A DNA stretch of 64,000 nucleotides, from positions 343,729 to 407,728 of the forward strand of contig CAVPIV010000003.1 in the NCBI GenBank assembly GCA_963705085.1, given 5' to 3'. The DNA comes from an uncultured Thermoleophilia bacterium (GTDB lineage Bacteria > Actinomycetota > Thermoleophilia > UBA2241). Of the stretch, positions 5,797 to 60,373 are shown one piece after another; the stretch's first letter is position 1, and every line of letters begins with the position of its first letter. Both the position numbers and the translations under genes were made by a program. The notes beneath the pieces were generated by a model. The model made no database searches. It saw only the letters and a program-made list of their open reading frames with translations, and was not told where the DNA came from.

Positions 5797-5819
5797 CGAC
5801 CCGCGGAATCTGGTTTCCT

Positions 5820-9053: not shown

Positions 9054-9056
9054 GGC

Positions 9057-9767: not shown

Positions 9768-9962
9768 GGGGCCGATGTTCACGAAGCGTTCCTTGCGCCG
9801 GGTTCGGGTCAACCCATCTTAGGCGGGGCTGCGAAGCCGGTCAACGCGACGCGCTGGGGCCGGGCACGGAGGGCGGCGGCAGCCCCTCCGCGTCGGGCGT
9901 CCCGGAGGCAAAACCCCTGCATTCCACGCCTGCTCTGGGACGCGTCGCCGGGCGCGGGCTAG

Positions 9963-9992
9963 TTGCGTGCCCGAAACCGCGTTTGGTATAGT
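9963..9992 (+). promoter_or_regulatory. Candidate sigma-70-type promoter of the nuo operon (-35 TTGCGT, 18-nt spacer, extended -10 TGgTATAGT)
   Basis: agTTGCGTgcccgaaaccgcgttTGgTATAGT lies about 70 nt upstream of the nuoA ATG. Confidence 0.4.
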
Positions 9993-10064
9993 CGCGTCCC
10001 AGTGACTCGCCTCCGGTCCTCTCCCGGGGAGCGGGTCCTTTGCCTTCTGTCGGGACAGGTCCTG

Positions 10065-10433
10065 ATGACTGAGACGTACCTCACCAACTGGGTGTACATC
10101 TGGCTCTTCATCGCCGCCGGTGGTGCTCTCGTGGCGCTCATCCTTCTCGTCGCCAAACTGGTCACTCCGGACCATCTCACCGCCGAGAAGCTCGCCCCAT
10201 ACGAGTGCGGCATTCCCGCCGTCGGCCGTCCGTGGTCGCCGTTCGCCGTCCGCTACTTCGTGTTCGGCCTCCTCTTCCTGGTGTTCGATGTCGAGGCTGT
10301 CTTCCTGTTCCCATGGGCGATCGTCTTTCGGGACCTCGGGTCGGCCGGCTTCGTCGAGATGGTGATCTTCGTCGCGGTCCTCGGCTTCGGCCTGCTGTAC
10401 GCCTGGCGCAAGGGGGCACTGGAATGGGCGTAA
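10065..10433 (+). CDS. nuoA: NADH-quinone oxidoreductase subunit A
   Basis: [20 protein letters not shown]...YECG...FDVE..FLFPWA; 122 aa. Confidence 0.88.
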
Positions 10434-10975
10434 CCGACGGGGCCGTCGGTCACGCGAGGATCCGGTACCCCAAGCTCGAGCGCTTCGAGCAGCCCAACAT
10501 CATCACCACGACGACCGACTTCATCTTCAGCTGGGCGCGGTCGAACTCGGTATTTCCGTTCCAGTATGGCCTCGCATGCTGCGCGATCGAGATGCTGAGC
10601 TCGGGGTTCTGCCGCTTCGACATCGCGCGCTTCGGCATGGAGGTCTTCCGGCCCACTCCGCGGCAGTGCGACCTGATGATCGTGGCGGGCACCGTCAACG
10701 AGAAGATGGCGCCGGTGCTCGTCCGGCTCTACGAGCAGATGTCAGAGCCCAAGTGGGTGATGAGCATGGGAGCGTGCGCCAACAGCGGCGGCCCGTTCTA
10801 CGACGGCTACAACGTGGTGAACGGGGTGGACAAGATCGTGCCGGTCGACGTCTACGTGCCCGGCTGCCCGCCTCGCCCCGAGGCTCTGTTCCAGGGTCTG
10901 CTCGAGCTGCAGAAGAAGATCCAGCGGTACTCGTTCGTGCCCCAGGCTCCGGTGGCCGGCGCCGGGGAGGGCTGA
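10424..10975 (+). CDS. nuoB: NADH-quinone oxidoreductase subunit B
   Basis: Start at ATG 10424 (MGVTDGA...). [18 protein letters not shown]...CDLMIVAGT...[10 protein letters not shown]...[13 protein letters not shown]. The upstream ORF extension is rejected. Confidence 0.88.
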
Positions 10976-10979
10976 CGCC

Positions 10980-11471
10980 GTGGCGCTTGAGATAGGCTCC
11001 AATCCCATGGAGATCGAGGAGATCGCCGAGCGGCTGTCACTGACGTTCGCGGGCGAGATCGAGGACGTCCGGGTCCAGGAGCCGGAGACGGTGGTGGCTC
11101 GCTGCGGCGCGGCGACCCTCAAGGACCTCGCGCCGCGCCTCAGGGCCGACGAGGACCTGGCCTACGAGACGCTCAACTGGATGGCGGGCGTCGATCGGCT
11201 GACCAATCTGGAGGCCGTCTACCACCTCTACAGCTGGAAGACCAATTCCTACCTGCAGCTGCACGTCTCCCTCCCGGATCCCGCCGAGATCGAGACGGTC
11301 TGCGGCGTCTGGCCCGCGGCCGAGTGGCTCGAGCGCGAGGCGTGGGACATGTTCGGCATCCGCTTCGCCGGCCACCCGGATCTGCGTCGCATCCTGCTCA
11401 AGGACGACTTCATCGGGCATCCGCTGCGCAAGGACTACATTGACCTCGTCGAGAACCACCCCCATGTCTGA
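10980..11471 (+). CDS. nuoC: NADH-quinone oxidoreductase subunit C
   Basis: 163 aa; ...WPAAEWLEREAWDMFGIRFAGHPDLRRILL. Confidence 0.8.
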   Translation: MALEIGSNPMEIEEIAERLSLTFAGEIEDVRVQEPETVVARCGAATLKDLAPRLRADEDLAYETLNWMAGVDRLTNLEAVYHLYSWKTNSYLQLHVSLPDPAEIETVCGVWPAAEWLEREAWDMFGIRFAGHPDLRRILLKDDFIGHPLRKDYIDLVENHPHV

Positions 11472-12678
11472 CGAGTTCGCGACAGCAGTTCCCGACGAGG
11501 CGGTGAAGCTCGCCCAGCGACGCATCGAGGAGGCGAACGCGCACGGCGCCGGCTCGAATCTCGAGGGGCTCACCTTCAACGAGGTCATCGTCAACATGGG
11601 TCCCCAGCATCCGTCGACCCACGGGGTGCTGCGCCTCGTGGTGACGCTGGACGGTGAGCTCGTCAAGGACGTGATCCCGGTCGTCGGGTACCTGCATCGC
11701 TGCAAGGAGAAGCTGGCCGAGAAGCGCACGTACTTTCAGTACATCCCGGTCATCGACCGCACCGAATACCTGGCCGGCATGAACTGCGAGTGGGGGTACG
11801 TGCTGACGGTCGAGAAGCTGGCCAGCATCAGGCCGCCGCGGCGGGCGGAGTTCATCCGCGTCATCATGGCCGAGCTCAACCGCATCGCCAGCCATCTGGT
11901 CGCGGTCGGCACGTTCACCGCCGACCTGGCGCCGCTCGGGACGGCCATGGTCTTCTATATGTTCCGCGACCGGGAGCTCATCCTCGACCTCCTCGAGGAG
12001 GTGAGCGGCGGTCGCATGATGTTCAACTACTTCCGCTTCGGCGGGGTTCGCGACGATCTGCCGGACGGCTGGATCGAAAGATGCCGCGACGTGATGCGCC
12101 GCATGCCGAAGCTCATCGACGAGCACGAGGCGCTCGTCGGCGACAACGCGATCTTCCTGCAGCGCTGCATCGGCAAGGGCGTGATCACCCAGCAGGACGT
12201 GGTCGACTACGCGATCACCGGACCGAACGCGCGCGCCTCCGGAGTGGCTCTCGACCTTCGCCGCACGCGGCCCTACTCGGTCTATCCCGAGCTCGAGTTC
12301 GACGTGCCCCTCGGACGGCACGGCGATGTCTACGATCGCTACCAGGTGAAGATGGACGAGATGCGCCAGTCGGTCAGGATTGTCGAACAGGCGCTGGACA
12401 TGCTGCCCAAGGGGCCGGTCCAGATTGGCTCGCTGCGGGCACCGTACGCGATCGCGCCGCCGCCCGGCGAGTGCTACGCGGCGCAGGAGAACCCGCGCGG
12501 CGAGTACGGCACGTACATCGTGAGCGACGGGACGCGCTACCCTTATCGCCTCAAGTTCCGCGACCCCTGCTTCATGCATCTGCAGATCTTTCCCAAGCTC
12601 CTGCGCGGCAACAAGATCGCGGATGCGGTGGCCATCTCGGGCAGTATGGATCTCGTTCTGGGAGGCATCGACCGGTGA
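11464..12678 (+). CDS. nuoD: NADH-quinone oxidoreductase subunit D
   Basis: Start MSDEFATA at ATG 11464; NMGPQHPSTHGVLRLVVTLDGE...; 404 aa. Confidence 0.88.
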   Translation: MSDEFATAVPDEAVKLAQRRIEEANAHGAGSNLEGLTFNEVIVNMGPQHPSTHGVLRLVVTLDGELVKDVIPVVGYLHRCKEKLAEKRTYFQYIPVIDRTEYLAGMNCEWGYVLTVEKLASIRPPRRAEFIRVIMAELNRIASHLVAVGTFTADLAPLGTAMVFYMFRDRELILDLLEEVSGGRMMFNYFRFGGVRDDLPDGWIERCRDVMRRMPKLIDEHEALVGDNAIFLQRCIGKGVITQQDVVDYAITGPNARASGVALDLRRTRPYSVYPELEFDVPLGRHGDVYDRYQVKMDEMRQSVRIVEQALDMLPKGPVQIGSLRAPYAIAPPPGECYAAQENPRGEYGTYIVSDGTRYPYRLKFRDPCFMHLQIFPKLLRGNKIADAVAISGSMDLVLGGIDR

Positions 12679-13796
12679 GCGATGCCGTCCTCGCCGTCCT
12701 TCGCGCCGTGCTCTTCGTGTTCATCGCCTACACGGTGGTGATGGTCTCCGCGCTCGTCAACATCGTCTTCGAGCGCCGGGTCCTGGGCTTCATGCAGGAT
12801 CGCCTGGGGCCGAATCGAACCGGCCCTCAGGGCGTCCTGCAGAGCGTCGCCGACTCCTTCAAGATGCTGGGCAAGGAGGACTTCCGGCCGCGGCTTGCCG
12901 ACCCGTACCTCTTCACCCTGGCGCCGATCATGGTGATGATCGGCGCCGTCGCCATCCAGGTCGTCGTGCCGTACACGAAGGGCCTGGTCGCCACCGAGCT
13001 CGACGTCGGCGTGATCTTCCTGGTAGCCATCACTGGCTTCACGACGCTGGCCATCCTGCTGGGCGGGTGGTCGTCGAACAACAAGTACTCGCTGGTCGGC
13101 GCGCTTCGCGGCGCCGCCCAGATGATCAGCTATGAGATCCCGATGATCCTGGGCCTCCTGGTGGTGGCCATGACCGTCGGGTCGCTGCGGCTGACGGACG
13201 TCGTGGCTGCGCAGGCCGGGTACCAGTGGCTCGTCTTCTACGCTCCGTTCACGTTTGTCATCTTCTACATCGCTTCGATCGCGGAGCTGAACCGCGGCCC
13301 CTTTGACCTGCCGGAGTCGGAGTCGGAGCTGGTGTCCGGCTACGGGACGGAGTACTCGGGCATGCGCTTCGGCATGTTCTACCTGAACGAGTACGCCGGC
13401 CTCACCATCATGTCCATGGTGACAGTCACCTTGTTTCTGGGAGGCTGGCACGGGCCGTTCGAGGACGCCATCAGCTTCTGGGGCGTGTCGTGGCTGCCGC
13501 TGATCTACTTCCTGGCGAAGACCTACGCGCTCGTCTTCCTGCTCGTCTGGATCAGGCTGTCGCTGCCTCGCCTGCAGGTTGACCAGCTCATGTCCTTCGC
13601 CTGGAAGATCCTCATCCCTCTCGGCCTTGTCAACATCCTCGCGGTCGGCGCCGTGATCCTCTGGGTGCCGCAGTGGAAGTGGGGGCTGGCAATCTACAGC
13701 TGGGTCGCCCTCCTCGCCTTCGTGGCGCTCTTCGATCCCATTCTCAAGTGGCGCCTGCGCAGGCAGCGCGCCCGCCTGCCGGTGGTGCATGCCTGA
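12675..13796 (+). CDS. nuoH: NADH-quinone oxidoreductase subunit H
   Basis: GTG 12675 overlaps the nuoD stop (GTGA), with GGAGG 9 nt upstream. VSALVNIVFERRVLGFMQDRLGPNRTGPQGVLQSVADSFK...; 373 aa, polytopic. Confidence 0.85.
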   Translation: MSDAVLAVLRAVLFVFIAYTVVMVSALVNIVFERRVLGFMQDRLGPNRTGPQGVLQSVADSFKMLGKEDFRPRLADPYLFTLAPIMVMIGAVAIQVVVPYTKGLVATELDVGVIFLVAITGFTTLAILLGGWSSNNKYSLVGALRGAAQMISYEIPMILGLLVVAMTVGSLRLTDVVAAQAGYQWLVFYAPFTFVIFYIASIAELNRGPFDLPESESELVSGYGTEYSGMRFGMFYLNEYAGLTIMSMVTVTLFLGGWHGPFEDAISFWGVSWLPLIYFLAKTYALVFLLVWIRLSLPRLQVDQLMSFAWKILIPLGLVNILAVGAVILWVPQWKWGLAIYSWVALLAFVALFDPILKWRLRRQRARLPVVHA

Positions 13797-14557
13797 TGCT
13801 CGGGATGTTCAAGGCCATGCGGACGACGATTCGCCACCTGCCGACCAGGAAGCTCACCGTGCAGTATCCGGAGGAGCGGGAGAAGCTGCCGGAGCGCAGC
13901 CGCGGCCTGTTCCGCGTCGTCGTCGACCCGCTGAGCGGCGACGCGCGCTGCCGCTCGTGCACGCTCTGCGAGACCAACTGCCCGGTGCAGGTGATCCGTG
14001 TGGAACACTCGAGCACGTACGACCTGCCGGCCCCCAACCTCGCCCGCCTCACGCGAGCGCGTCTCGGCGCCCAGCCCGGCGTCGACCTCGAGCCGTTGCG
14101 CCCCGTGATCGACGACTACCGCGAGCACGGCACAGGCCTCATCGGCATCCTGCAGAACACCCAGGACACCTACAGGTACCTGCCGCGCCGGGCTCTGGAG
14201 GAGATCGCGCTGCAGACGGGCGTCTCTCTCGCGCAGATCTACGGCGTCGCGAGCTTCTACAACCAATTCCGTCTCTCGCCGACCGGCGACTACATCATCG
14301 AGGTGTGCCACGGGACCGCCTGTCACGTCGCGGGCTCGACCAAGATCAGCGAGGCGCTCCAGGAGGAGCTCGGAGTGTCGGAAGGCAAGACGACGGCCGA
14401 CATGAAGTTCACGTTGTCGTCGGTCGCCTGCATGGGGGCGTGTTCGCAGGCGCCGGTCATGCGCGTGGGCGAGCGCACCTTCGGCGGCCTCACGCCCGAC
14501 AAGACGCGACAGGTCATCCGGGAGATCATGCGCGAGGTCGGGGCCGGCGAGGGGTGA
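13796..14557 (+). CDS. Fusion protein: NuoI N-terminal region (one CxxCxxCxxxCP motif) joined to a NuoE-like thioredoxin-fold [2Fe-2S] domain
   Basis: ATG 13796 overlaps the nuoH stop (TGATG). MLGMFKAMRTTIRHLPTRKLTVQYPEEREKLPERSRGLFRVVVDPLSGDARCRSCTLCETNCPVQVIRVE matches the NuoI N-terminus plus the first cluster motif. The protein then continues as NuoE-like: LIGILQNTQDTYRYLPRRALEEIALQTGVSLAQIYGVASFYNQF...CHGTACHVAGS...CMGACSQAPVMRV. The second NuoI ferredoxin motif is absent. Confidence 0.75.
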   Translation: MLGMFKAMRTTIRHLPTRKLTVQYPEEREKLPERSRGLFRVVVDPLSGDARCRSCTLCETNCPVQVIRVEHSSTYDLPAPNLARLTRARLGAQPGVDLEPLRPVIDDYREHGTGLIGILQNTQDTYRYLPRRALEEIALQTGVSLAQIYGVASFYNQFRLSPTGDYIIEVCHGTACHVAGSTKISEALQEELGVSEGKTTADMKFTLSSVACMGACSQAPVMRVGERTFGGLTPDKTRQVIREIMREVGAGEG

Positions 14558-14559
14558 GC

Positions 14560-16497
14560 ATGGACGTGGACAACCACATCCCCGACGCCCCGGAGCCGGT
14601 CGACCAGACGCCGCCGGCGGACGAGTCAGCACCGCAGGCCGAAGGTCGCGCGGTGCGCGTCGCCGCGACCGAGGGCGGCTACCGCGTCTCGGTCTGCGCC
14701 GGGACCGCCTGCACGTTCGCGGGCTCGGCCGCCGTCTTCGACGCCTTCGTGCGCAAGGTCGAGGCCGCTGGTCTGAGCGATCGTGTCGAGGTCTCGATCG
14801 TGGGGTGCCACGGCCTCTGCACGATGAGCCCGGTCGTGGTGCTTGGCGACGACACGCTCTACGGGCACTTGCGGCCCGAGGATGTGAGCGTCGTCGTGTT
14901 GCAGCACCTCGAGAGCGGCGTTCCCGTCGAGAGGTTCCTCTACAAGGATCCGCGCACCGGTGAGCGGGTGCGCGACTGGCACGACATCGAGTTCTACAAG
15001 CAGCAGACGCGTATTGCGCTGCGCAACGTCGGCCGGGTCAATCCGGAGAGCATCGACGAGTACGTCGCCCGCGGCGGATACGAGGCGGCCCGGATGGTCC
15101 TGACGGAGAAGACGCCGGAATGGGTCGTCGGGCAGGTGACCGAGTCAGGCGTTCGCGGTCGCGGCGGCGCTGGGTTCTCGACGGGCGTCAAGTGGGAGCT
15201 GGCCAAGAAGTCGCGCGGCGACGTCAAGTACATCATCTGCAACGGCGACGAAGGCGACCCCGGGGCGTTCATGGACGCCTCCATCATGGACGGCGATCCG
15301 CACGCGGTGATCGAGGGCATGATCATCGGCAGCTACGCTATCGGCGCGCACCAGGGCTACATCTATGTGCGCGCCGAGTATCCGCTCGCCGTTCGCCGCC
15401 TCACCAAGGCGATCGCCGACGCCGAGGCGGCGGGCTATCTCGGAGATGACGTGATGGGCAGCGGCTGGGCCTTCCACCTCAAGCTCAAACTCGGCGCCGG
15501 CGCCTTCGTCTGCGGCGAAGAGACGGCGCTCATCGCCTCCATCGAGGGCCGCCGCGGCATGCCTCGCACGAGGCCGCCGTATCCTGCCGTGAGCGGCCTC
15601 TGGGGCAAGCCGACGAACATCAACAACGTCGAGACGTTCGCCAACATCCCGTGGATCGTCATGCATGGAGCGGACGCCTACGCCGAGCTCGGCGTGGCGG
15701 GGTGCCACGGCACCAAGGCGTTCAGCCTGGCCGGCAAGCTCGTCAACGGCGGGCTCGCCGAGATCCCCATGGGCGTGACCCTGCGGCACGTCATCTACGA
15801 CGTCGGCGGGGGCATCCGGGACGGCCGTCAATTCAAGGCCGTGCAGCTCGGAGGCCCGTCGGGCGGGTGCGTCCCGGCGAGCATGCTGGACACGCCCGTC
15901 GACTACGAGAGCCTGGCCGCGACGGGCGCCATGGTCGGCTCGGGCGGCATCGTCGCCGTGGACGATCAGACCTGCATGGTCGACATGGCGCGCTTCTTCT
16001 TGCGCTTCACGCAGAGCGAATCCTGCGGCAAGTGCATCCCGTGCCGGCTGGGCACCAAGCGCATGCTCGACGTCCTCGACCGCATCGTCTCCGGAGAGGG
16101 TCGGGACGGCGACGTCGAGCTCCTCGGGGAGATGGGCGCCCACGTGTCGGAAGGCAGCCTGTGCGCCTTGGGGGGCACCGCGCCCAACCCCGTCCTCACC
16201 ACGATCAAGTACTTCCGCCGGGAGTACGAGGCGCACATCCACGAGAAGCGCTGCCCGGCCGGGACCTGCAAGGCGCTCATCCGCTACACCATCGACCCGG
16301 ACGCCTGCACGGGCTGCACGCTCTGCGCGAAGAAGTGCCCGGTCGCTTGCATCGGCGGCGAACGCAAGCAGGTCCACGTCATCGACCAGAGGGCCTGCAT
16401 CAGGTGCGACACGTGTCGTCTGGTCTGCAAGTTCAACGCCGTCCGTGTGCTCTCCGGGGTCGACGAGCCCGCGCCCGTGGTCGGCGGAGGGGTGTGA
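14560..16497 (+). CDS. NuoF-like FMN/NADH-binding flavoprotein with extra N-terminal [2Fe-2S] and C-terminal 2x[4Fe-4S] domains (BfuB/HydB-type)
   Basis: 645 aa. N-terminus VCAGTACTFAGS...VGCHGLC. Core GRGGAGFSTGVKWE, ICNGDEGDPGAFMD, FVCGEETALIASIEG, SCGKCIPCR. C-terminus CPAGTCK...CTGCTLCAKKCP...CIRCDTCRLVC. Confidence 0.82.
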   Translation: MDVDNHIPDAPEPVDQTPPADESAPQAEGRAVRVAATEGGYRVSVCAGTACTFAGSAAVFDAFVRKVEAAGLSDRVEVSIVGCHGLCTMSPVVVLGDDTLYGHLRPEDVSVVVLQHLESGVPVERFLYKDPRTGERVRDWHDIEFYKQQTRIALRNVGRVNPESIDEYVARGGYEAARMVLTEKTPEWVVGQVTESGVRGRGGAGFSTGVKWELAKKSRGDVKYIICNGDEGDPGAFMDASIMDGDPHAVIEGMIIGSYAIGAHQGYIYVRAEYPLAVRRLTKAIADAEAAGYLGDDVMGSGWAFHLKLKLGAGAFVCGEETALIASIEGRRGMPRTRPPYPAVSGLWGKPTNINNVETFANIPWIVMHGADAYAELGVAGCHGTKAFSLAGKLVNGGLAEIPMGVTLRHVIYDVGGGIRDGRQFKAVQLGGPSGGCVPASMLDTPVDYESLAATGAMVGSGGIVAVDDQTCMVDMARFFLRFTQSESCGKCIPCRLGTKRMLDVLDRIVSGEGRDGDVELLGEMGAHVSEGSLCALGGTAPNPVLTTIKYFRREYEAHIHEKRCPAGTCKALIRYTIDPDACTGCTLCAKKCPVACIGGERKQVHVIDQRACIRCDTCRLVCKFNAVRVLSGVDEPAPVVGGGV

Positions 16498-18977
16498 GGA
16501 CGCTGGCCACGCCTGCCCGAGACGTGCGGCGGCCGCCGCCGCAGCCTGGCCAGGTGATCGTCGAGATCGACGGCCAGGAGATCGCCTGCGATCGCGGCGA
16601 GACAGTCCTGGTGGCCGCGCGGCGGGCCGGCATCCACATCCCGACGCTGTGCCTCGAGCCGCGCCTGCCGGCCACCGGCGCCTGCCGTATGTGCGTCGTC
16701 GAGATCGAGGGCGCGCGCAAGGTGATGACCAGCTGCACGACGGCCGTCGCGGACGGTATGGTGGTGCGCACCAACACGCAGAAGCTGCGCGCCATGCGGC
16801 ACTTCTACCTTGAGTTGCTGCTGAGCGACCACAACTCCTTCTGCACCCCGCCGTGTCGCGATGCCTGCCCGACGCACATCAAGATCCCCCAGTTCCTCGA
16901 CTTCATCGCGCACCGCGACTACAAGAACGGCGTACGAAAGCTGCGAGAGGATCTGCCCTTCCCCGCCATTCTCGGTCGGGTCTGCCCGCGACCCTGCGAA
17001 GGACCATGCCGGCGCCAGCTCGTCGACCAGTCGATAACGATCTGCCAGCTGCATCGCTTCATGGCCGACCAGTGCCTCGACGAGGAGCAGGAGGGCGAAT
17101 TGCTGCTGCCGGTCGAGCCGAAGGCCGACACCGGCAAGAAGATCGCGATCGTCGGCGGCGGACCCGCCGGGCTCGCCGCCGCCTTCTACGCGCGGCTCGA
17201 GGGCCATGCGGTCAAGATCTTCGAAGCCATGCCCAAGCCGGGTGGGATGCTGCGCTACGGGATTCCGAGCTACCGGCTGCCGCGCGAAGTGCTGGAGAAG
17301 GAGATCAACGTACTCTGGCGCCTGGGAGTCGGGCTGCAGGCGAACACGAGGCTGGGGGTCGACCTCCAGCTCGAAGATCTGCTCGCGGAGTACGACGCCG
17401 TCTTCCTCGCCCTCGGGGCGTTCAACAGCAACGACATGGGGATCCCGGGCGAGGACGCCGACGGGGTCGTCAACGCGGTCGACTTCCTCGGCGAGCTCGA
17501 GCTCCACGGCGATGTGCACGTGGGCCGGCGGGTGACGGTCATCGGTGGCGGCTTCACCGCCATGGACGCCTGCCGGACCTCGGTGCGCAAGGGGGCCGAG
17601 GAGGTCACCTGTCTCTACCGGCGGTCACGCAAGGAGATGCCGGCGCACCACAGCGAAGTCGACGAGGCCGAGGAAGAAGGCGTCAGGCTCGAGCTCCTGT
17701 GCGCTCCCGTCCGGGTCGTGACGGACGAGGCCAACAAGGTGACGGGGATCGAGATGCAGCGCATGGAGCTCGGTGAGCCGGACGCATCGGGCCGGCGCCG
17801 CCCTGTCCCGCTGGATGGCTCCGAGTTCATCGTCGAGTGCGATCAGATCATCGCGGCGATCGGCCAGTATCCGCGGCTGGACGGGACGAGCGAGGAGCAG
17901 GGTGTCACCCGCACCAGGTGGCGCACGATCAAGGTTGACGACTGGACCTATCAGACCGCCGATCCGCGGGTCTTCGCCGGCGGCGACGTCGTGCTCGGAG
18001 CGCAGACGGTGGTCCAGGCGGTGGCCCAGGGCAAGAAGGCCGCCTGGAGCATGGACGCCTTCTTGCGAGGCGCCGATATGGCGGCCGTGACGGAGCAGCT
18101 CGCGCTCCTCAAGTCGGCGCCCTTCGTCGAGGCGCTGGCCGTCAGGGGCGACGTCGACCCGCGTATTGCGCGCATGGCCGAGATCCCGCCGGTGTTCATC
18201 GACATGACGACCGACGTGACCGGTCCGCTGCCGCCGGCCGAGATGCCGATGCTGACGCCGGGCGAACGCCGCGGCGACTTCCGGCAGATCGAGCTCGGCT
18301 TCGGCGAGGACGCCGCCGCCGAGGGCGCGGGACGGTGCCTCGACTGCTACTGCCCAGCGAACGGCGCCTGCGACCTGCAGCGGTACAGCATTGAGTACGA
18401 GGTCTTCCACAACCGCTTCCACGGCGGAGAGGCTCACAACTACCCCGCCGACTTTCGCCACGACTTCATCATGCGCGAGCCCAATCGCTGCATCAACTGC
18501 GGGCGCTGCGTACGCGTGTGCCGCAGCGAGGTCGGGGCGAGCTGCTACGACAACATGGGGCGGGGGTACGACGCCATCGTCAGCACCGCCGACAACCTGC
18601 CGCTGCAGATGGTCGGTTGCGTGTCGTGCGGCAAGTGCGCCGAGACGTGCCCAACGGGCGCGATCGTCACCAATCCGCGGAAGCTGGAGCGGTACGGGCT
18701 CGACTTCAGCCGCTGCATGTTCTGCGGCGAGTGCGTCGAGGTCTGCCCGTACGACGCGCTCGAACAGAGGAGCTTCTTCGAGCTCGCGGACTTCAGTCGC
18801 GGCGCGCTCGCCGCCGAGTCGCTGTACGTACGGGAGCCGCGCCCTGTCGACCTGCTGCGCGAGACGGTGACCGATCTGGTGCCGCACGTCCTCGACGCGG
18901 AGCTCGGCCGTGGCTGGGTATGGGAGCCCATCAAGGACGATCCCGTGCGCCTTGACGGCGAGGAGGGTGAGTGCTGA
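16494..18977 (+). CDS. Multi-domain Fe-S flavoprotein: N-terminal NuoG/HydA-like [2Fe-2S] ferredoxin domain, GltD/NfnB-like FAD/NAD(P)H domain, and C-terminal NuoG-like His/[4Fe-4S] clusters plus a NuoI-like 2x[4Fe-4S] ferredoxin tail
   Basis: Start uncertain (GTG 16494 or GTG 16521). N-terminus IVEIDGQEIACDRGETV...CLEPRLPATGACRMCVVE. GltD-like CTPPCRDACPTHIKIPQF...GRVCPRPCEGPCRRQ, KKIAIVGGGPAGLAAAFY. C-terminus RCLDCYCPANGACDLQ, RCINCGRCVRVCRSEVG...GRGYDA, CVSCGKCAETCPTGAIVTNPRKLERYGLDFSRCMFCGECVEVCPYDALEQRSFFELADF. The last part aligns to the NuoI core and tail (ERY...RCIFCGLCEEACP...DFEMADY). Confidence 0.75.
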   Translation: MRTLATPARDVRRPPPQPGQVIVEIDGQEIACDRGETVLVAARRAGIHIPTLCLEPRLPATGACRMCVVEIEGARKVMTSCTTAVADGMVVRTNTQKLRAMRHFYLELLLSDHNSFCTPPCRDACPTHIKIPQFLDFIAHRDYKNGVRKLREDLPFPAILGRVCPRPCEGPCRRQLVDQSITICQLHRFMADQCLDEEQEGELLLPVEPKADTGKKIAIVGGGPAGLAAAFYARLEGHAVKIFEAMPKPGGMLRYGIPSYRLPREVLEKEINVLWRLGVGLQANTRLGVDLQLEDLLAEYDAVFLALGAFNSNDMGIPGEDADGVVNAVDFLGELELHGDVHVGRRVTVIGGGFTAMDACRTSVRKGAEEVTCLYRRSRKEMPAHHSEVDEAEEEGVRLELLCAPVRVVTDEANKVTGIEMQRMELGEPDASGRRRPVPLDGSEFIVECDQIIAAIGQYPRLDGTSEEQGVTRTRWRTIKVDDWTYQTADPRVFAGGDVVLGAQTVVQAVAQGKKAAWSMDAFLRGADMAAVTEQLALLKSAPFVEALAVRGDVDPRIARMAEIPPVFIDMTTDVTGPLPPAEMPMLTPGERRGDFRQIELGFGEDAAAEGAGRCLDCYCPANGACDLQRYSIEYEVFHNRFHGGEAHNYPADFRHDFIMREPNRCINCGRCVRVCRSEVGASCYDNMGRGYDAIVSTADNLPLQMVGCVSCGKCAETCPTGAIVTNPRKLERYGLDFSRCMFCGECVEVCPYDALEQRSFFELADFSRGALAAESLYVREPRPVDLLRETVTDLVPHVLDAELGRGWVWEPIKDDPVRLDGEEGEC

Positions 18978-21715: not shown

Positions 21716-23303
21716 TGGGCTGGCAGGATCAGATCGGCTTCCCCATCCTGTCCGTCATCACCTACCTGCCGCTGCTCGGCGTGCTCGTGATCCTGCTGGC
21801 CGGGAACGGTCGGCCCGTCGTGTACAAGGCCATCTCGCTGGTCGTGACCCTGGCGGCGCTCGTGCTTGCCGTGGTGATGCTGCTGGCCTTCGACACCGTC
21901 GCCCCCGGCCTGCAGTTCGTCGAGGACGTCGCCTGGATCCCGTCGCTCAACATCCGCTACGGCTTCGGCGTCGACGGCATCAGCGCCCTCCTCATCTTTC
22001 TCACGGCGCTGCTCGGCGTGATCGTGGTCGTGGCCAGCTGGCACTACGCCAAGCAGCGCGAGATGGGGTTCTTCGTCTCACTCCTGCTGCTGCAGGCGGG
22101 CATGGTCGGCGTGTTCTGCGCCACCGATCTCTTCCTGTTCTACGTGTTCTGGGAGGCATGCTGGTGCCGATGTACTTCCTCATCGGCATCTGGGGCGGCC
22201 CCGGCGTGTCTACGCGGCGATCAAGTTCTTCCTCTTCACCCTGGTCGGCAGCCTGCTGATGCTGGTCGCCATCGTCGTCGTCGTGTACTACAGTGCAACG
22301 ACGCTCGCGGGGTCCTCACGTTCGACATCCGGGAGCTGAGCGCGCAGGCCTATTCCTACCGCTGCAGTTCTGGGCCTTCCTCGCCTTCTTCCTGGCGTTC
22401 GCCATCAAGGTGCCCATGTTCCCGGTCCACACCTGGCTGCCGGACGCCCACGTGGAGGCGCCGATGGCAGGCTCGGTGATCCTGGCGGGCGTGCTCCTGA
22501 AGATGGGCGGGTACGGCATGCTGCGCTTCTGCCTGCCCTTCTTCCCCGACGCCGCGGTGACTTCGCGCCGTTCATCGTCATCCTCTCGGTGATCGCGATC
22601 GTCTACGGCGCCCTGGTCTCGCTCGCCAGAAGGACCTCAAGAAGCTGGTGGCCTACTCGAGCGTCAGCCACATGGGCTTCGTGACGGCCGGCATCTTCGC
22701 CTCCATCGTGATCGCCGGCAACGCGGTGGGCATGGAGGGCGCCATCCTCGTGATGTTCAGCCACGGCGTCCTCACCGGCGCCCTGTTCCTCATGGTCGGG
22801 CTTCCTGTACGAGCGCACGCATACCCGGCAGCTCGCCGAGATGGCCATGCTGGCCACGCCGTTGCCGGTCACCGGCGGGGTTCCTGCTGTTCTTCGCCCT
22901 GGGCTCGCTCGGCCTGCCCGGCCTGAGCGGGTTCGTCGGGGAGTTCCTCAGCCTGCTCGGGCTGTTCCAGTACTCATCATGGCTGACGGCGATCGCCGCG
23001 CTGGGCGTCATTCTGGCGGCTGCCTATCTGCTCTGGATGTACCAGCGGGTGATGTTCAACGACCGTGGCGACGTTGACTTCGTCACGCCCTCCATCGGCC
23101 TGCAGGACTCGGCGCTCGCGAGATCGTCTCGCTGCTGCCCCTGGTCGTGCTTCGCGGTCTGGCCCGGGGTCTACCCGAACACGTTCCTCGACTTCCTGCA
23201 CGTGCCGGTGCGCGAGATCCTCGATCAGGTCGATGCCGTCGCTCGACGCCGCTCGCTCCGACGGGCTGGCGCAGCTCCTGTCTCCGCCAAGGCGATCTTC
23301 TGA
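21715..23303 (+). pseudogene. nuoM: NADH-quinone oxidoreductase subunit M, interrupted by multiple 1-nt frameshifts (probable sequencing errors)
   Basis: NuoM segments recovered in three frames: MGWQDQIGFPILSVITYLPLL.../MLVPMYFLIGIWGG.../[38 protein letters not shown].../[16 protein letters not shown].../LWMYQRVMFNDRGD. Shifts fall in G/C homopolymer runs. Confidence 0.7.
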
Positions 23304-24890
23304 TGTACGCCAACAACTCGGTCGACGATCATTCTGCCCGTGCGTCGTCCTGGCGCTCGCGGCGGCGGCGGTCTTCGCCGTCGACCTGTTCGTGGAACGC
23401 AAGGCCGCGCTCGCCTGGCTGGCCGGCGCCGGCCTGCTTGGCGCCGCGGCGGTCGCTGTGGGGCAGTGGCTGGCGATGGCCGACGGCGTCGCGGGCGGGC
23501 AGTCGCCCGAGGTCGGCTTCGCCGGCATGGTCGCGCTCGACGAGTACGCGCTCTTCGGGGTCGTCCTGTTCGCCGCGATCGGCGTGTTGACGATCATGCT
23601 CTCGGACTCCTATCTGGCCCGGCGCCGGGCGGCGCGCGGCGAGTTCTACGGCCTGCTGCTGCTGGTCGTGACCGGCATGGTCGGCATGGTCGCGAGCACC
23701 GACATCATCATGTTCTTCATCTCGTTCGAGCTGATGTCGCTGCCCACGTACGTCCTGGCCGGCTACCTGTGGCGGGATGAGCGCTCCGGGGAGGCGTCGC
23801 TCAAGTACTTCGTCAACGGCGCGTTCTCCTCGGCGATCCTCGCTTTCGGTCTGGCGCTCCTGTACGGGGCGACCGGCCAGACCAACTACGGGGCCATCGC
23901 CGAGAGGCTCGCGACGGCGCTCACCCCGGTCGGGACGACGGGTTGCTCGTCGTCGCCCTCGTCCTCACGGTGACCGGCTTCGGCTTCAAAGTGTCGACGG
24001 TGCCCTTCCACGGCTGGGCGCCCGACGTCTACGAGGGTGCCCCTACGCCGGTCACGACATTCATGTCGGTGGGCATCAAGGCGGCGGCCTTCGCCGGATT
24101 CGCGCGGCTGTTCACGGTGGCCGTCGGCGACGGAGTGGGCGACGTGGGGCAACGCCATGATCGTCCTTGCGGTGCTCACGATGATCGTCGGGAACGTTCT
24201 CGCTCTGCCGCAGCGCAATCTCAAGCGGATGCTTGCCTACTCCAGCATCGCCCACGCCGGCTACCTGCTGCTGGGCCTCATCGTCGCGGGTCGCGGCGAC
24301 GGCGCGCTCGGCGTCGTCGGCCGTCCTCTTCTACCTGGCGGCCTACGCCTTCATGAACCTCGGGGCGTTCGGCATCCTGATCTGGATCCGCAACCGACGC
24401 CCGTTCGACTACACCCTGGACGAGATCAGCCGGCCTCGGGCGGCTCGATGCCGTGGGCCGGCGATCTGTCATGGCCGCTGTTCATGCTGTCGCTGACGGG
24501 CATCCCGCCGATGGTCGGGTTCTGGGGCAAGTTCTACCTCTTCACGGCGGTCGTGAGGCCGGCTACACCTGGCTGGCCATCGTTGCCGTGATCATGAGCG
24601 CCGTGTCGGCCTTCTACTACCTGCGCGTCGTCTGGTACATGTACTTCCGCGAGGCGCAGGATCAGCAGGCGGGCGGGCCGGCGGACGAGCTCGCGGCGCC
24701 CCTTCGCGACGGGCCGTCGGGCGTGCCGAGCGCGGACGCGCCCGCTGAGTCCCGGGCCGGTCGAGCGCGGCGCTTCGCCGCCGTCGGCCTGGCGGCGGCG
24801 GGCGTGCTCGCCTTCGGCCTCTTCCCGGAACCGCTGCTCAACGCCACCGAGGTCGCTGTCCGGCTGATCCTCGCGGCTGACGGCCGGCGG
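23303..24890 (+). pseudogene. nuoN: NADH-quinone oxidoreductase subunit N, interrupted by multiple frameshifts (probable sequencing errors)
   Basis: ATG 23303 overlaps the nuoM stop (TGATG). NuoN segments in alternating frames: ...VVLALAAAAVFAVDLF.../MFFISFELMSLPTYVLAGY.../[36 protein letters not shown].../[16 protein letters not shown].../[21 protein letters not shown]. The 3' end is uncertain. Confidence 0.65.
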
Positions 24891-24935
24891 GTGACGCCGG
24901 CTGCGGCGGTGAGGCGTCACCGTGCCGCCGGCGAT
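24888..24935. terminator. Imperfect long hairpin between nuoN and the ymdB-like gene
   Basis: ccggcgggtgacgcc...ggcgtcaccgtgccgccgg inverted repeat. Confidence 0.3.
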
Positions 24936-24950
24936 AGGTACACTACTCTC

Positions 24951-25724
24951 ATGAGGATCCTGTTCGTCGGCGACGTGTTCGGGCAGCCCGGGCGGGACGC
25001 GGTCCTGCGCTGGCTCCCGGGCTTCCGCGACGGAGCGCGCCGTCGACTTCGTGATCGCCAACGGCGAGAACATCGCCAACGGCGCCGGCATCACCTCGAA
25101 GCTCGCCCTCAAGCTGCTGGCCGCCGGCATCGACGTGATCACGACCGGCAACCACGTCTGTCGCCAGCGAGAGGTCTACCGCTTCCTGAACGTCGACGAT
25201 CGCATCGTGCGGCCGGCCAACTACCCCGCCGAGCTCCCGGGCCGGGGCCTGACCGTCCGTCCGGCCGCGGACGGCAGCGAGGTCGCCGTGGTCAATCTCG
25301 CCGGCGGGCTCTTCATGGGCAGCGGCATGTCGCCGTTCCGCCTCGTCGACCGCCTCGTCGAGAAGCGATCGGGATGGCGGAGACGGTCGTCGTCGACCTG
25401 CACGCCGAGGCGACAAGCGAGAAGGTTGCCATGGGGCACTACCTCGACGGGCGCGTCACGGCGCTCATCGGGACGCACACGCACGTGCAGACCTCCGATG
25501 CCCGCGTCCTCCCCGGAGGCACCGCCTACATCACCGACGTCGGCATGACCGGCGCGCTCGAGTCCGTCATCGGCGTCCGCACCGACATCATCATTCAGCG
25601 CTTCCTCACGGAGCTGCCCGCGCAGTTCGAGGTGGCAGACGGCGCCGTTCGTCTCAACGCCGTGCTTGTCGATGGCCAGGCGGGCCGGGCCACGGGCATC
25701 GAGACGATCGAGGCGATCCTCTAG
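24951..25724 (+). pseudogene. YmdB-like (TIGR00282) metallophosphoesterase/2',3'-cyclic-nucleotide phosphodiesterase, with about 2 frameshifts
   Basis: [18 protein letters not shown]... then, in other frames, [37 protein letters not shown]... and [38 protein letters not shown]... Confidence 0.65.
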
Positions 25725-54730: not shown

Positions 54731-54806
54731 GGGCCGCTAGCTCAGTTGGGAGAGCGCCGCCTTTGCACGGCGGAGGTCAGGGGTTCGACTCCCCTGCGGT
54801 CCACCA
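54731..54806 (+). tRNA. tRNA-Ala (anticodon UGC), G3:U70, CCA encoded
   Basis: GGGCCGCTAGCTCAGTTGGGAGAGCGCCGCCTTTGCACGGCGGAGGTCAGGGGTTCGACTCCCCTGCGGTCCACCA; canonical cloverleaf; anticodon loop CTTTGCA. Confidence 0.9.
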
Positions 54807-56204: not shown

Positions 56205-56978
56205 GGTCCTCCTCCTTCTCCTGCATCGCAGGTTCGATTTCAGCCGGGGCAATCAGTCCTCTGCTGCTCAGGGCGACTTTCGTGACCTGGCGCTCACAGG
56301 CCCGAGTTTCCGCAGCCAGTGTGAGCCCGGCGCCGATCTATTCGCGCAGGCGTGCTGCTTGGTCTTGATCTTGAGCAGGTCGAGCGACTCGAGCCATCGG
56401 ATGCCAGGCGACGGGAGGTGACGTGCTCAGCCCTCAGCGCGCTGCCGTGCACGGACATGGCGAATATCATGACCCCTCCGAAGGCCGCCGGTCACCATTC
56501 TTCCCACGGCGGTGCGAGTCGAAATGCGCCTCCGTTGGTCGGCAGGCTACGCTCACGCGGTCGCCGAGGGTGCGCGACAGCGCTCCGCCGGTGGCGGATC
56601 GACCTGGGCCGTAGGCCGACCGGCCTTCGTACCTCCCAGCCGACGCGATGCCGACGAGACGCCTCATCCGGCGTGATACGGCCGGGCACAGCCCAGCAGG
56701 GTGGGCGCGCGAAACCTCGGAGGACGCAGCACTTTCGCGCACGCGGGACTACGCCGCGTTACGCCTAGTATCCGACTGGATTGGGTCCGCCCGAGAGCCC
56801 AATCCCCTCCGTCACCCCTCAGGTGATAGCGTCACATCTAGCGATTGGCCCGTACGGGGACAGTCCGAGGATGGAGGGCTGGTGTTCGCCTTCATGGGCG
56901 AGCGGGTGGGGCAATGTGCTCACCTCGCAGGCGCTGCGCCGGACGCTCTCGACCCGCGTCGACAGAGAGGAGTGAACC

Positions 56979-57695
56979 GTGGAACGTCCAGGCGAGGCTC
57001 ACGGCTGGAGGTTCACGCGCAGGGCGGAGCACCACGCGGGCACACTGACCGTCGGCTGCATCGCCGGGATGTGCTTCGCGGTCCTGTTCGGCCTCTGCGC
57101 GGTCCTCGTCCGCAGCAGCGTTGGGAGTGCTTCGGACACCACTGGGGCGTGGCTGGCCGAGAGCCGGCGGCAGGTTGAGATCGCCCTCGCCCTCCTCCCC
57201 TTCGCGGGGATCTTCTTCCTCTGGTTCATCGCCGTGTCCCGGCAGCGCCTCGGGCGCTACGAGGACCGCTTCATCTCGACGCTCGTCCTCGGCAGCGGGC
57301 TGCTGTTCCTCGGGATGGTCTTCGTCGCCGCCGCCCTCGGCGCGGCGATCCTGACCGCCTACTCGAATTCGGCCTCCTTCGCCGGCAGCGAAACCTACAT
57401 GTTTATCACGCTCGCGTTCTCGCAGTTGTTCGGCGTGTACGCGCTGCGCATGGCGGCGGTATTCCTCATCTGCCAGGCGACGGCGTGGCTGCGGCACGGG
57501 CTCATGCCCAAATGGCTGGCTTTGCCGACCTACGTCGTCGCCCTGGTGCTCCTGTTCGTCGTGGGCGTTCAGGCGTGGGCAATCCTGATCTTCCCCGCCT
57601 GGGTCTTCCTCGTGAGTGCCTACCTGCTCGTGGTCAGCGGCCGTGGCGGGGTCGACGAGGCGGGGGGCCCGGAGGCCGTGGGTCCCGACGCCTGA
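56979..57695 (+). CDS. Hypothetical polytopic membrane protein
   Basis: 238 aa, about 6 TM; no recognisable family. Confidence 0.45.
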   Translation: MERPGEAHGWRFTRRAEHHAGTLTVGCIAGMCFAVLFGLCAVLVRSSVGSASDTTGAWLAESRRQVEIALALLPFAGIFFLWFIAVSRQRLGRYEDRFISTLVLGSGLLFLGMVFVAAALGAAILTAYSNSASFAGSETYMFITLAFSQLFGVYALRMAAVFLICQATAWLRHGLMPKWLALPTYVVALVLLFVVGVQAWAILIFPAWVFLVSAYLLVVSGRGGVDEAGGPEAVGPDA

Positions 57696-58201
57696 CGGCC
57701 CTGCGCGGTCTAAGCCGGCGGGGTGTTCGCCTCGCGGTCGAGAACGTGTTACAGGTGACCTGGCCTGTCCGGGCGTCGCACCCCGCCGTATTGCACCAAC
57801 TGCAAGATCAACAACAGGGTCTACCGTCACAGCACAGCCGGCGATGAACTCAGGCTGCGGATCCATGAATCGCGGAATCCGGGGAATCTCGAACGCAATC
57901 CGATCGTCTCGCTGCGCCCATCTTGGAACACCCAGATTCCTTGGTGGGGAGCCTCTCCCGGCAAACAACGGCGTCAAGCCGGACGGCGCGCCCCCGAGAG
58001 CTAGAATCGAAGAGCAACGGCGGGCGAAGGCGCGGCGCCGCGCACGCCGAACAACGTTAGATGCATCACGCCTCACGGCGGGAGATCGCACTTGGGGCCC
58101 TCATACGCGCATCGCGAACGAAGCAGGGACCCCGATCCTCCAGCCCCTTTGTCAAGCTTGCCAGTGGGACCCTTCGACCTTGTCATTGAAAGGAGCAACC
58201 C

Positions 58202-58897
58202 ATGAACGAGCCTAGTTTGGCGGACAGGACCTTTCACATCATTATGAGGCGCATGGTGGAGACCGGTCAGGCTCCCCACTTCACTGAGATAGCAGCTGAC
58301 TTAGGTGTATCCATGGAGGAAGGGCGGCAGGCGCTTCATGCATTGATAGGTATAGGTCTAGGGGGCTGGCTATATCCTGGGACGGATCTCATTGTCTCCA
58401 TGGCACCTTTTCACAGTTTACCGAATCAGTATCGTATCACCATTGATGGTCAACAGAAGTGGTTTGCCCAATGAGCTTTCGAATCGCCAGCAGTCTGCTG
58501 GCTCTTTCCAGGTAAAACCGTCCATCTTGAAGCGCCCTGTCTCGATTGTGGCCAACCGATCCGCGTGGATTTCAAGGACGGGGAAGTTCTGAACAGTGAT
58601 CCCGAGGGACTGATTGGGCATGTGTCTGTTCCCCTTCGCCAATGGGCAGAGAATGTCACCTTCACCTGAAGTACCATGCACTTCTTCCGGTCGGAAGAAC
58701 ATCTGCGGAACTGGGCTGGTTTTGAGGCGGAAAACGAGGGCGGAATCATTTCCCTCTCTGATCTTGTCAAGTTGACTGCTATTGATCACTTCCGAAAGCG
58801 ATTGGAACCTGACTACATTTCGAGCTACTTTGGGGTTGGAGAGGTCATGAAGAGGTTGCAGGAGATCGGCAAGACAGATCCTTATTGGTTGCTCTAG
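58202..58897 (+). CDS. merB: Organomercurial lyase (MerB)-like protein with two in-frame UGA codons at the catalytic Cys positions (candidate selenoprotein, Sec at 58472-58474 and 58667-58669)
   Basis: AAAGGAG RBS 7 nt before ATG 58202. One continuous frame reads MNEPSL...YRITIDGQQKWFAQ[UGA]AFESPAVCWLFPGKTVHLEAPCLDCGQPIRV...ENVTFT[UGA]STMHFFRSEEHLRNWAGFE...DPYWLL. It aligns to MerB ...FEIDDRRLYAW-C96-ALD99...GRTARVSSHCAATGAPV...SFC-C159-HVHFFAS. Each UGA is followed at +12 by a 7-bp hairpin with a GUCU/GGUC loop. Local GC is about 50%. Confidence 0.6.
58486..58502 (+). promoter_or_regulatory. Candidate bacterial SECIS hairpin 1 (11 nt after the UGA at 58472-58474)
   Basis: GCCAGCA-GUC-UGCUGGC; conserved G and U in the apical loop about 20 nt from the UGA; resembles the fdhF apical stem-loop (UGCAG-GUCU-GCA). 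Confidence 0.5.
58682..58699 (+). promoter_or_regulatory. Candidate bacterial SECIS hairpin 2 (12 nt after the UGA at 58667-58669)
   Basis: UUCUUCC-GGUC-GGAAGAA: perfect 7-bp stem with a GGUC apical loop. Confidence 0.55.
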
Positions 58898-59161
58898 CCC
58901 GGATGTGATCTATCACGTGGTTTCAGTGGCCGTTCGCTGGTCCGGACCAGAGGATCCAATAAGCGCCTCAACCTGACGCGCACAAGATGGGCGGTTGACT
59001 GATAGGGAAGTGGGCCGGCACCGTCTACGCGGTGGCTACTGTGTCCACTCCGCCCGTCGATTCCGAGGTCAACTATGGGTTGAGCCAGCGTACTCACCAG
59101 CGGGCAGCCACCATTCGGATGGACACCCAAGAGCGGACGTCGCATGAAAGGAGCAGGGGCC

Positions 59162-59731: not shown

Positions 59732-60373
59732 ATGGGAGTGATGGAGTACATGGCGGGCCAGCTGAGGAGGCCCTCGGGCCTCGTCGGCCGGCACGTTACT
59801 TCGAGGCTCCTGAACAGAGCCAACGTCGGGGTCAACCAGCTGACGCTGGCGTCGCTGGACCTCGAACCCGACGATCGGGTGATCGAGGTGGGGTTCGGCG
59901 CCGGCGACCTCATCGGTCGCCTCGCATCGGTTGTCGTCGAGGGCTCCGTCACAGGGATCGACTTCTCAGGTGACATGGTCGAGCTCTGCGCGAAGCGCTT
60001 CGCCTCGCTGGTTCGATCAGGGCGCGTCGACCTGCTGTGTGCGAGGGCGGAGCGCCTGCCCTGCGCCGCCGAGAGCTTCACCAGGGCCTGCACGGTCAAC
60101 ACGATCTACTTCTGGCGTGATCCGGCCGTTCCCCTGCGCGAGCTCAGGCGCGTGCTGCGCGCGGACGGCAGTCTGGCTGTCGGTTTCAGTCCCCGAGCCG
60201 TCATGCAGAAGCTGCCGGTCACGCGGCACGGCTTCACGCTCTACGAGCCGAACGAGATCGGCCGTCTGCTCGAGGCGGCCGGGTTCGGCGATGTCGAGAT
60301 CCTCCCCGGTCCCGACCCACGTGCGGAGTTCCTCTGCGCGGTTGGCACGAAGCACGGTGGGGGTGCCGTCTAG
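59732..60373 (+). CDS. Class I SAM-dependent methyltransferase
   Basis: AGGAG RBS; VIEVGFGAGDLIGRLA...TVNTIYFW... Confidence 0.7.
   Translation: MGVMEYMAGQLRRPSGLVGRHVTSRLLNRANVGVNQLTLASLDLEPDDRVIEVGFGAGDLIGRLASVVVEGSVTGIDFSGDMVELCAKRFASLVRSGRVDLLCARAERLPCAAESFTRACTVNTIYFWRDPAVPLRELRRVLRADGSLAVGFSPRAVMQKLPVTRHGFTLYEPNEIGRLLEAAGFGDVEILPGPDPRAEFLCAVGTKHGGGAV

Follow-up and report, generated by a model that had tools for sequence, protein, structure and literature searches.

A 64,000-nucleotide stretch of contig CAVPIV010000003.1 from an uncultured Thermoleophilia bacterium (the window) carries a solitary gene that likely encodes a protein of the MerB (organomercurial lyase) fold with selenocysteine (Sec) as both catalytic nucleophiles. 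In this reading two in-frame UGA codons are each read with the help of a selenocysteine insertion sequence (SECIS), the product acts in a MerB-like manner, and the gene was imported on its own. The family to which it belongs is very likely a genuine two-Sec selenoprotein of the MerB fold, the window copy is probably functional in its host, and we infer that Sec is actually inserted there. The gene was singled out in a reading of the nucleotide sequence alone (the original prediction). Its description of the frame, the catalytic positions and the hairpin geometry held when these were followed up, and its claims on the origin of the UGA codons and on novelty had to be revised.

UGA codons at both catalytic positions of a MerB homologue

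Direct translation gave the single frame that had been announced: 231 sense codons lead from an ATG to a TAG stop, and the sole in-frame stops are TGA codons at positions 91 and 156. A Shine-Dalgarno-like site precedes the start. The form TTGAAAGGAGCA of this site is retained in the window copy and in three close relatives (L001, L008 and L009), and TTCAAAGGA/TTCAGAGGA are found instead in two others (L006 and L010).

The window protein, with Cys put at both stop positions, matched the Pfam MerB family (PF03243) over residues 73-192 with 81.1 bits against a gathering cutoff of 27 (E = 8.7e-23). When it was aligned with HMMER to the solved MerB and MerB2 chains, codon 91 fell on Cys96 (WCALD in MerB, QUAFE in the window protein) and codon 156 on Cys159 (SFC[C/S]HVHFF and FTUSTMHFF, respectively). 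The homology to MerB and the exact placement of the UGAs on both catalytic Cys columns were thus borne out, and the acidic residue expected three positions past the first UGA is Glu94, aligned to Asp99. The nucleophile, acid and nucleophile columns would be filled by Sec91, Glu94 and Sec156, which are chemically equivalent to the MerB residues, not identical to them. Glu94 is present in 41 of 41 aligned family sequences. The same is true of Cys113 and Cys116, both of which are also invariant in alignment A3. By simple counting, the chance that two random stops fall on two given columns of a 231-codon frame is about 4e-5, and chance is fully removed as an explanation because the same arrangement recurs in more than 100 independent sequences.

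The fold was assessed on a natural homologue with Cys at both positions (P0039), which is 54% identical to the window protein and served as its modelled stand-in. The AlphaFold2 model, built from a 35-sequence family alignment, had a mean predicted local distance difference test (pLDDT) score of 93.8. Its significant matches in the PDB were 11 MerB or MerB2 chains and nothing else (Foldseek E between 3.6e-10 and 3.4e-7, template modelling (TM) score up to 0.68). The N-terminal 60 residues gave weak matches to winged helix-turn-helix (wHTH)-like folds at non-significant E-values. These results show family membership at the level of the MerB fold.

Recurrence of the two UGA codons across the family

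Homologous loci were sought in named genomes and metagenome-assembled genomes (MAGs), with one genome scanned per species. Forty-two loci were found and 35 were readable at both sites. Thirty-two of these have TGA/TGA and three have TGC/TGA, in intact frames of 231-238 codons and at identities down to 39%. The carriers bear labels from at least six phyla: Chloroflexia, Acidobacteriota, Abyssobacteria, Desulfobacterales, Smithella, Desulfarculus, Acidimicrobiia, Nitrospirota/Thermodesulfovibrionales, Syntrophobacter sp. SbD1, Geobacteraceae and Desulfobulbaceae. Desulforhabdus sp. TSK (locus L028, NZ_BQXM01000004.1), whose record is one of just two without a MAG label, is also TGA/TGA. A scan of metagenomes found at least 579 relatives, and 80 loci were fetched. 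At least 71 of the 80 are TGA/TGA. In a further six, site 1 is TGA and site 2 cannot be read, and a single locus is TGT/TGA. Counted by column, TGA occupies the first site in 32 of the 35 genome loci that could be read and in no fewer than 77 of the 80 metagenome loci, and it occupies the second in every DNA locus where that site is readable. TGC or TGT was found at site 1 in nine loci (L001, L025-L027, L096, L130-L132 and L136). In two of them (L027 and L096) the nearest sequence motifs are those of Sec-type loci, and a separate Cys/Sec group also exists.

TGA/TGA is thus the commonest state among the loci recovered for the family. The original prediction had held the two codons hard to explain as pseudogene decay, and the recurrence of TGA/TGA with otherwise intact frames excludes such decay at the family level. 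It had also taken them for independent TGC/TGT-to-TGA changes in the window genome; this part fails, since TGA/TGA is the commonest state among the recovered loci and the copy appears to have been acquired horizontally. The comparison of homologues that it had proposed, with Cys or UGA scored at both columns, gave a TGA/TGA majority together with Cys/Sec and rare Cys/Cys forms. Such interchange between TGA and Cys codons at catalytic Cys columns is the classic signature of Sec/Cys pairs.

The protein databases mirror this pattern. A homology search returned about 70 proteins of 150-170 amino acids (aa) whose C-terminal end coincides exactly with the UGA2 column; in 68 of them the first column holds Cys. 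Another 47 full-length proteins, all on contigs of at most 2.7 kb, have Trp at both columns. In the two that were checked, P0002 and P0005, the underlying DNA has TGA at both codons, and the Trp calls are apparently an artefact of a TGA=Trp translation table. Full-length proteins with Cys at both columns number only three (P0008, P0039 and P0045). Among representatives clustered at 50% identity, the family is present largely as fragments at profile positions 1-90, about 91-155 and 159-234, the pattern characteristic of a gene broken at two UGA codons.

Some copies had further peculiarities. In L014, L018, L022, L024, L026 and L041 the terminal stop is itself TGA, a few codons past the conserved GPFW motif, and these genes would thus hold two recoded UGAs and one terminating UGA. 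Three copies in long-read delta-proteobacterial MAGs (L045, L047 and L048) have frameshifts or early stops, either assembly indels or real pseudogenes. The mistranslated full-length proteins with Trp at both columns, found in the range P0002-P0047 and also at L002 and L004, come mostly from JGI gene calls and in part from ENA, NCBI and Logan.

SECIS-like hairpins after both UGA codons

A hairpin begins 11-12 nucleotides (nt) past each UGA. Counted from the U of its UGA, hairpin 1 has its stem at nt 15-21/25-31 and a loop GUC (or AGUCU) that holds G22 and U23, and hairpin 2 has its stem at nt 16-22/27-33 with the loop GGUC at nt 23-26. The Escherichia coli fdhF gene (UGA at codon 140) was retrieved and all three elements were folded in one register. 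The fdhF SECIS has its stem at nt 15-31 and its GGUC loop at nt 22-25 by this folding, and both window hairpins agree with it in position and in the GU-containing loop within 1 nt. The direct comparison therefore supports the bacterial-SECIS geometry that had been proposed. As in fdhF, the hairpins stand directly past the UGA and inside the coding sequence, with upper stem-loops spanning nt 15-31 at site 1 and nt 16-33 at site 2. The loop of site 2 is identical to that of fdhF, and site 1 shares G22-U23 with it. Unlike fdhF, the upper stems in the window lack a bulged U, and a short gene carries two such elements 195 nt apart, for which binding by SelB is predicted.

The pairing is maintained across the family. 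At site 1, the six core pairs form in about 100% of the 103 unique Sec-type sequences, and G22 and U23 never vary, although these two bases belong to a conserved Val codon. A Leu-to-Pro change of the window copy in stem 1 turns two wobble pairs into Watson-Crick pairs and breaks none. At site 2, the six core pairs form in at least 98% of the 86 unique sequences, and 79 of the 86 have the loop GGUC; the seventh pair (nt 16-33) is C-G in 58, U-A in 8 and U-G in 2, and 18 sequences have a C/A mismatch there. Normalised synonymous-codon entropy, which is about 0.75 across most of the gene, drops to 0-0.2 at codons 161-165 in the stem of site 2 (CTC 27/27, TTC 41/41, CGG for Arg 39/39, TCG for Ser 41/41 and GAA 40/41) and likewise to 0-0.2 at codons 95, 96 and 99 in hairpin 1. 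Because synonymous variation collapses at the stem arms, most clearly after UGA2, these patterns point to selection at the RNA level, for which the evidence is strong at site 2 and good at site 1.

Close relatives of the window copy and its probable arrival as a single gene

The exact 90-aa N-terminal fragment of the window protein is also present in three other metagenomes, each time with TGA/TGA. At 90% identity this fragment belongs to a cluster of 28 members, and 14 of the 15 members listed are 90 aa long. The L001 locus, about 94% identical to the window at the nucleotide level within the gene, has TGC at site 1. This Cys codon looks derived, because TGA is found in the rest of the close relatives (L005-L011) and in the nearest outgroups (L012 and L013).

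The window copy looks like a recent stand-alone import that crossed phyla, a single-gene mobile unit. Comparison of the window with L008, L009 and L010 by blastn showed 91-92% identity confined to positions 58141-59013, with unrelated flanks. Homology with L001 and L006 begins further upstream, near position 58055, at a common boundary with a GTTAGAT core, and the downstream end of the shared segment, which differs among copies, lies either about 45 nt or some 115 nt after the stop codon. Two Chloroflexia MAGs and one Acidobacteriota MAG (CAVPDG01, CAVOSB01 and CAVRYD01) have copies of more than 90% identity, and nothing but the gene and 40-115 nt to each side is shared with them. The guanine-cytosine (GC) content of the gene is 51%, against about 68% in the host, and the gene lies in a trough of 51-53% between flanks of 62-70%. 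An integron cassette was considered as the route of mobility and was not supported, the downstream ends being inconsistent and neither a convincing attC nor an integrase being found. The features of the gene and of its import are collected in Table 1.

Table 1. Positions of the gene, its recoding signals and the shared segment in the window
Feature	Position	Strand	Description and basis
Putative imported segment	58055..59013	+	About 960 bp (leader, gene and trailer of about 115 nt); GC trough; sole stretch common to near-identical copies
Shine-Dalgarno-like GAAAGGAG	58188..58195	+	6 nt upstream of ATG; direct reading of the sequence
Coding sequence of the predicted MerB-family selenoprotein	58202..58897	+	ATG start, TAG stop at 58895-58897; 231 residues with predicted Sec91 and Sec156; translation, Pfam, PDB alignment
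UGA1, predicted Sec91	58472..58474	+	MerB Cys96 equivalent; alignment to solved MerB chains
SECIS-like element 1	58475..58513	+	Core hairpin 58486-58502 plus lower 3-bp helix (nt 10-12/34-36)
Glu94 codon	58481..58483	+	Equivalent of the MerB proton donor Asp99; aligned family sequences
Cys113-x-x-Cys116 pair (PCLDCG)	58538..58549	+	Cys113 equivalent to MerB Cys117; Cys116 family-specific
UGA2, predicted Sec156	58667..58669	+	MerB Cys159 equivalent; alignment to solved MerB chains
SECIS-like element 2	58682..58699	+	7-bp stem UUCUUCC/GGAAGAA, apical loop GGUC; fold and family pairing

Relation to SaoL and canonical MerB

The original prediction knew of no described selenocysteine-containing MerB. 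This does not hold: SaoL, a MerB relative with one Sec aligned to Cys159, has already been published (Haft & Gwadz, bioRxiv 10.1101/2022.07.06.499078; listed in PMC13188914). SaoL (NCBIfam NF040728) and the window protein share PF03243, the MerB fold and a Sec at the equivalent of Cys159; both are truncated at UGA in databases, and both are found in anaerobes including Deltaproteobacteria. They differ in that SaoL has a single Sec, in a CU dipeptide, and Cys at the Cys96 equivalent, whereas the motif is T-U in the window protein and A-U in most of its relatives, and most members recovered have a second Sec at the Cys96 equivalent. SaoL belongs to a conserved nine-gene SAO locus, and the window gene is solitary and lies outside such a locus. 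The SaoL model scores the window protein at 32.8 bits against a cutoff of 140, and no model of NCBIfam release 20 captures it.

With canonical MerB (E. coli R831b, PDB 3F0P/3F0O; MerB2, PDB 5C17) the window protein shares the fold, the three catalytic columns, the order of secondary structures and a Cys (Cys113) aligned to MerB Cys117. The identity is about 20%, and Sec/Glu/Sec stands in place of Cys/Asp/Cys. The window protein has no counterpart of Cys160, its extra Cys116 makes a CxxC, and its gene is neither in a mer operon nor next to merA. SaoL is the sole MerB-family selenoprotein in Haft & Gwadz and in the 2022 and 2026 selenoproteome reviews, and a search of the literature on organomercurial or alkylmercury lyases together with selenocysteine or selenoproteins, with Haft & Tolstoy 2025 outside the comparison, returned nothing beyond SaoL. 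The window gene thus represents a distinct MerB-fold clade that has Sec at both catalytic positions, is solitary and systematically mis-annotated, and was not found in the catalogues searched.

Proposed decoding and mechanism

In the mechanism that we propose, each hairpin, with its GU-containing apical loop, would be read as a bacterial SECIS and, by analogy with fdhF, would recruit SelB with Sec-tRNA(Sec). The ribosome would insert Sec91 and, 65 codons on, Sec156 to give a 231-residue product. By analogy with MerB, an organometal substrate would then have its metal gripped by the two selenolates; methylmercury or another organomercurial is the most plausible candidate. The invariant Glu94, in the place of Asp99, would protonate the leaving carbon. 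The metal ion would be held between the two Se atoms until it is passed on. Since the gene has neither MerA nor a mer operon beside it, possible acceptors would be small thiols or the Cys113-x-x-Cys116 pair specific to the family. In model chemistry selones cleave Hg-C bonds faster than thiones and yield very stable Hg-Se products, and selenium compounds bind Hg very tightly, with inert HgSe-type products (PMC11639659). Product release may be limiting because of the stability of the Hg-Se products, and very tight Hg-Se binding could as well hinder turnover as bring the much higher reactivity towards Hg-C bonds that the original prediction expected.

Points against this reading and alternative explanations

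Several results weigh against the gene being a functional two-Sec lyase. Hairpin 1 is kept in six of the nine genes with Cys at site 1 and weakened in the other three, and it follows in part from the conserved L-A-V-x-W-L codons, which makes it weaker as stand-alone evidence. Its mean energy differs only modestly between Sec-type and Cys-type genes (-9.4 and -8.0 kcal/mol, uncorrected p of about 0.01). The original prediction had taken the pair of hairpins as evidence for Sec; the case is the stronger at site 2, and at site 1 it is loosened by the presence of the hairpin in these Cys-type relatives. The minimum free energies could not be distinguished from those of shuffled sequence (z = -1.15 for hairpin 1 and -0.79 for hairpin 2), so that the support from the hairpins comes from the comparative data and not from folding energy. 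An Rfam scan at gathering and permissive thresholds gave no match to a SECIS family, a result that is uninformative for such short coding-region hairpins. Among the family models, the NCBIfam MerB equivalogs NF009710 and NF033555 scored the protein far below their cutoffs (42.3 against 193 and 37.3 against 200). No mer operon genes (merR, merT, merP or merA) were found near the window gene, and an all-against-all comparison of open reading frames (ORFs) within 6 kb at about 40 loci revealed no conserved neighbour. As for the Sec machinery, selA, selB, selD and tRNA-Sec were not found within the 64-kb window (about 50 annotated genes), and no tRNA-Sec was found in 33 fetched family loci. The foreign composition and the sharing of the gene alone mean that the copy could be a recent arrival in a non-decoding host.

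The alternative that survives best accepts a genuine two-Sec protein and questions its activity. The protein could be a metal or metalloid trap or chaperone, a lyase for other organometals or organometalloids, or a wHTH-like metal sensor, and we regard this as a serious, if tentative, possibility. The missing mer genes and conserved neighbour, the low equivalog scores, the Glu in place of Asp99, the extra CxxC and the weak N-terminal wHTH-like matches all fit such a role, as does one Cys/Sec relative that lies beside Cu/Zn superoxide dismutase, Metal_resist and RND efflux genes. Haft & Gwadz voice the same caution for SaoL, and the tight binding between Se and Hg, with its inert products, argues for poor turnover. 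On the other side, the full MerB catalytic geometry of nucleophile, acid and nucleophile is conserved and invariant, the faster Hg-C cleavage by selones favours a lyase, and no other biochemical role is known for the MerB fold. We consider that action of the window protein as an organomercurial lyase, for which MerB is the analogy, falls a little short of an even prospect.

A second explanation keeps the family as a real selenoprotein and takes the window copy for a dead import, in a host without Sec machinery, whose translation ends at codon 91. The GC content of the gene against that of the host and the copies shared as the gene alone in other phyla agree with it. So do the lack in the window of Sec machinery and of any other gene with an in-frame TGA (four such candidates proved to be adjacent genes in the same frame). 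The NuoD encoded in the window is about 80% identical to MAG proteins labelled 'Thermoleophilia bacterium', and a literature search on Sec use in Thermoleophilia found nothing relevant. Nevertheless, a 64-kb window from a contig of at least 428 kb says little about machinery elsewhere in the genome. The frame is fully intact and preceded by a Shine-Dalgarno-like site, the closest copies differ mostly by synonymous changes past both UGAs, and alleles of this class are abundant across many samples. The pooled Nei-Gojobori ratio of nonsynonymous to synonymous substitution rates (dN/dS) for seven close sequences, which pools non-independent pairs and describes the clade and not the terminal branch of the window copy, a further point on the unfavourable side, was 0.14 for codons 1-90, 0.30 for codons 92-155 and 0.28 for codons 157-231. 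The last two values indicate purifying selection on the segments past each UGA. A dead import is improbable in our judgement, and a copy that is decoded in its host is the reading we retain.

It is very improbable that the UGAs are decoded other than as Sec, be it as Trp or Gly by a reassigned code or as Cys by near-cognate read-through or a Cys-charged tRNA(Sec). The public gene calls with Trp at both codons seem to speak for it, but these look like the table artefacts on short contigs described above. Reassignment of the code was ruled out, TGA being the main ordinary stop in the window, where it ends 23 of the 33 genes with Pfam support. The codons lie exactly on the catalytic Cys columns, where they interchange with Cys codons, and are followed by fdhF-like hairpins at the right spacing. 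Least credible of all is Sec at UGA2 alone, with UGA1 of the window as a nonsense mutation of a Cys codon, which the TGC of the closely similar L001, the about 68 database proteins with Cys at site 1 and a stop at site 2, and the lack of specificity of hairpin 1 for Sec-type genes might suggest, but which the comparative data already contradict, given the TGA majority at site 1 down to 39% identity, the TGA of the other close relatives and outgroups that makes the L001 codon look derived, and the purifying selection on the 64 codons past UGA1. A MerB-fold protein with two Sec residues remains the preferred reading.

Genomic surroundings

The genes around the import in the window encode an FG-GAP protein, tRNA-Ala, an AsqO-like protein, a methyltransferase, a solute-binding protein, SnoaL and TetR, none of them related to mercury resistance. 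The tRNA-Ala(TGC) gene occupies 54731-54806, 3.4 kb upstream of the imported gene. Between the two, a region of about 1.8 kb (56300-58100; ORFs 56979-57695 on the forward and 56892-58091 on the reverse strand) has a high GC content at third codon positions (GC3) and no Pfam match. About 830 nt downstream, on the same strand, a class I S-adenosylmethionine (SAM) methyltransferase (Methyltransf_11/25; 59732-60373) has no in-frame TGA. The 2026 selenoproteome review lists a methyltransferase-domain selenoprotein family, MduS (PF13649). Elsewhere in the window, an ORF of 1108 aa (15651-18977) joins 2Fe-2S, GltD-like and NuoG-like domains. Together with genes at 23065-23973 and 24453-25724, among which are a partial Proton_antipo_M and a YmdB of which only the C-terminal part is present, it looks fused or fragmented. 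These may be indel errors of a long-read MAG or genuine fusions.

Two Cys/Sec members of the family have neighbourhoods of their own. In L130 the gene adjoins genes for Cu/Zn superoxide dismutase, Metal_resist, TetR and RND/MFP/OEP efflux (4151-15273), which may be a metal-stress context. In L132-L135, four contigs examined, a Cys/Sec member is consistently found beside the genes for electron transfer flavoprotein (ETF) alpha/beta, an EamA transporter, an MttB-type methyltransferase and B12-binding proteins.

Implications

In the public protein sets searched, a family with hundreds of environmental members is present as pieces of about 90, 64 and 75 aa or with Trp wrongly placed at its UGA codons, and surveys of merB-like genes built on such gene calls would miss it. 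Sec in place of both metal-ligating cysteines of a lyase is unusual, and the natural series of Sec/Sec, Cys/Sec and Cys/Cys forms provides a ready experiment on the role of selenium in carbon-metal cleavage as opposed to metal release. The window copy suggests that a gene with two UGA codons can move on its own from one phylum to another, although such a gene is useful only in hosts that already decode Sec.

Some carrier records are labelled with lineages to which anaerobes and mercury methylators belong (Desulfobacterota, Nitrospirota, Chloroflexota, Syntrophobacter and Geobacteraceae). The labels Desulfobacterota, Nitrospirota, Syntrophobacter and Geobacteraceae among the carriers overlap known mercury methylators, and the family can therefore be tested as a candidate for breaking down methylmercury where a mer operon is missing. 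That it is a widespread and overlooked diselenolate organomercurial (methylmercury) lyase working without such an operon is a doubtful proposition at present. If it is true, the family would be the first enzyme of the MerB fold with selenocysteine as both catalytic nucleophiles, and it would provide a molecular candidate for mer-independent demethylation of methylmercury in anoxic sediments and soils.

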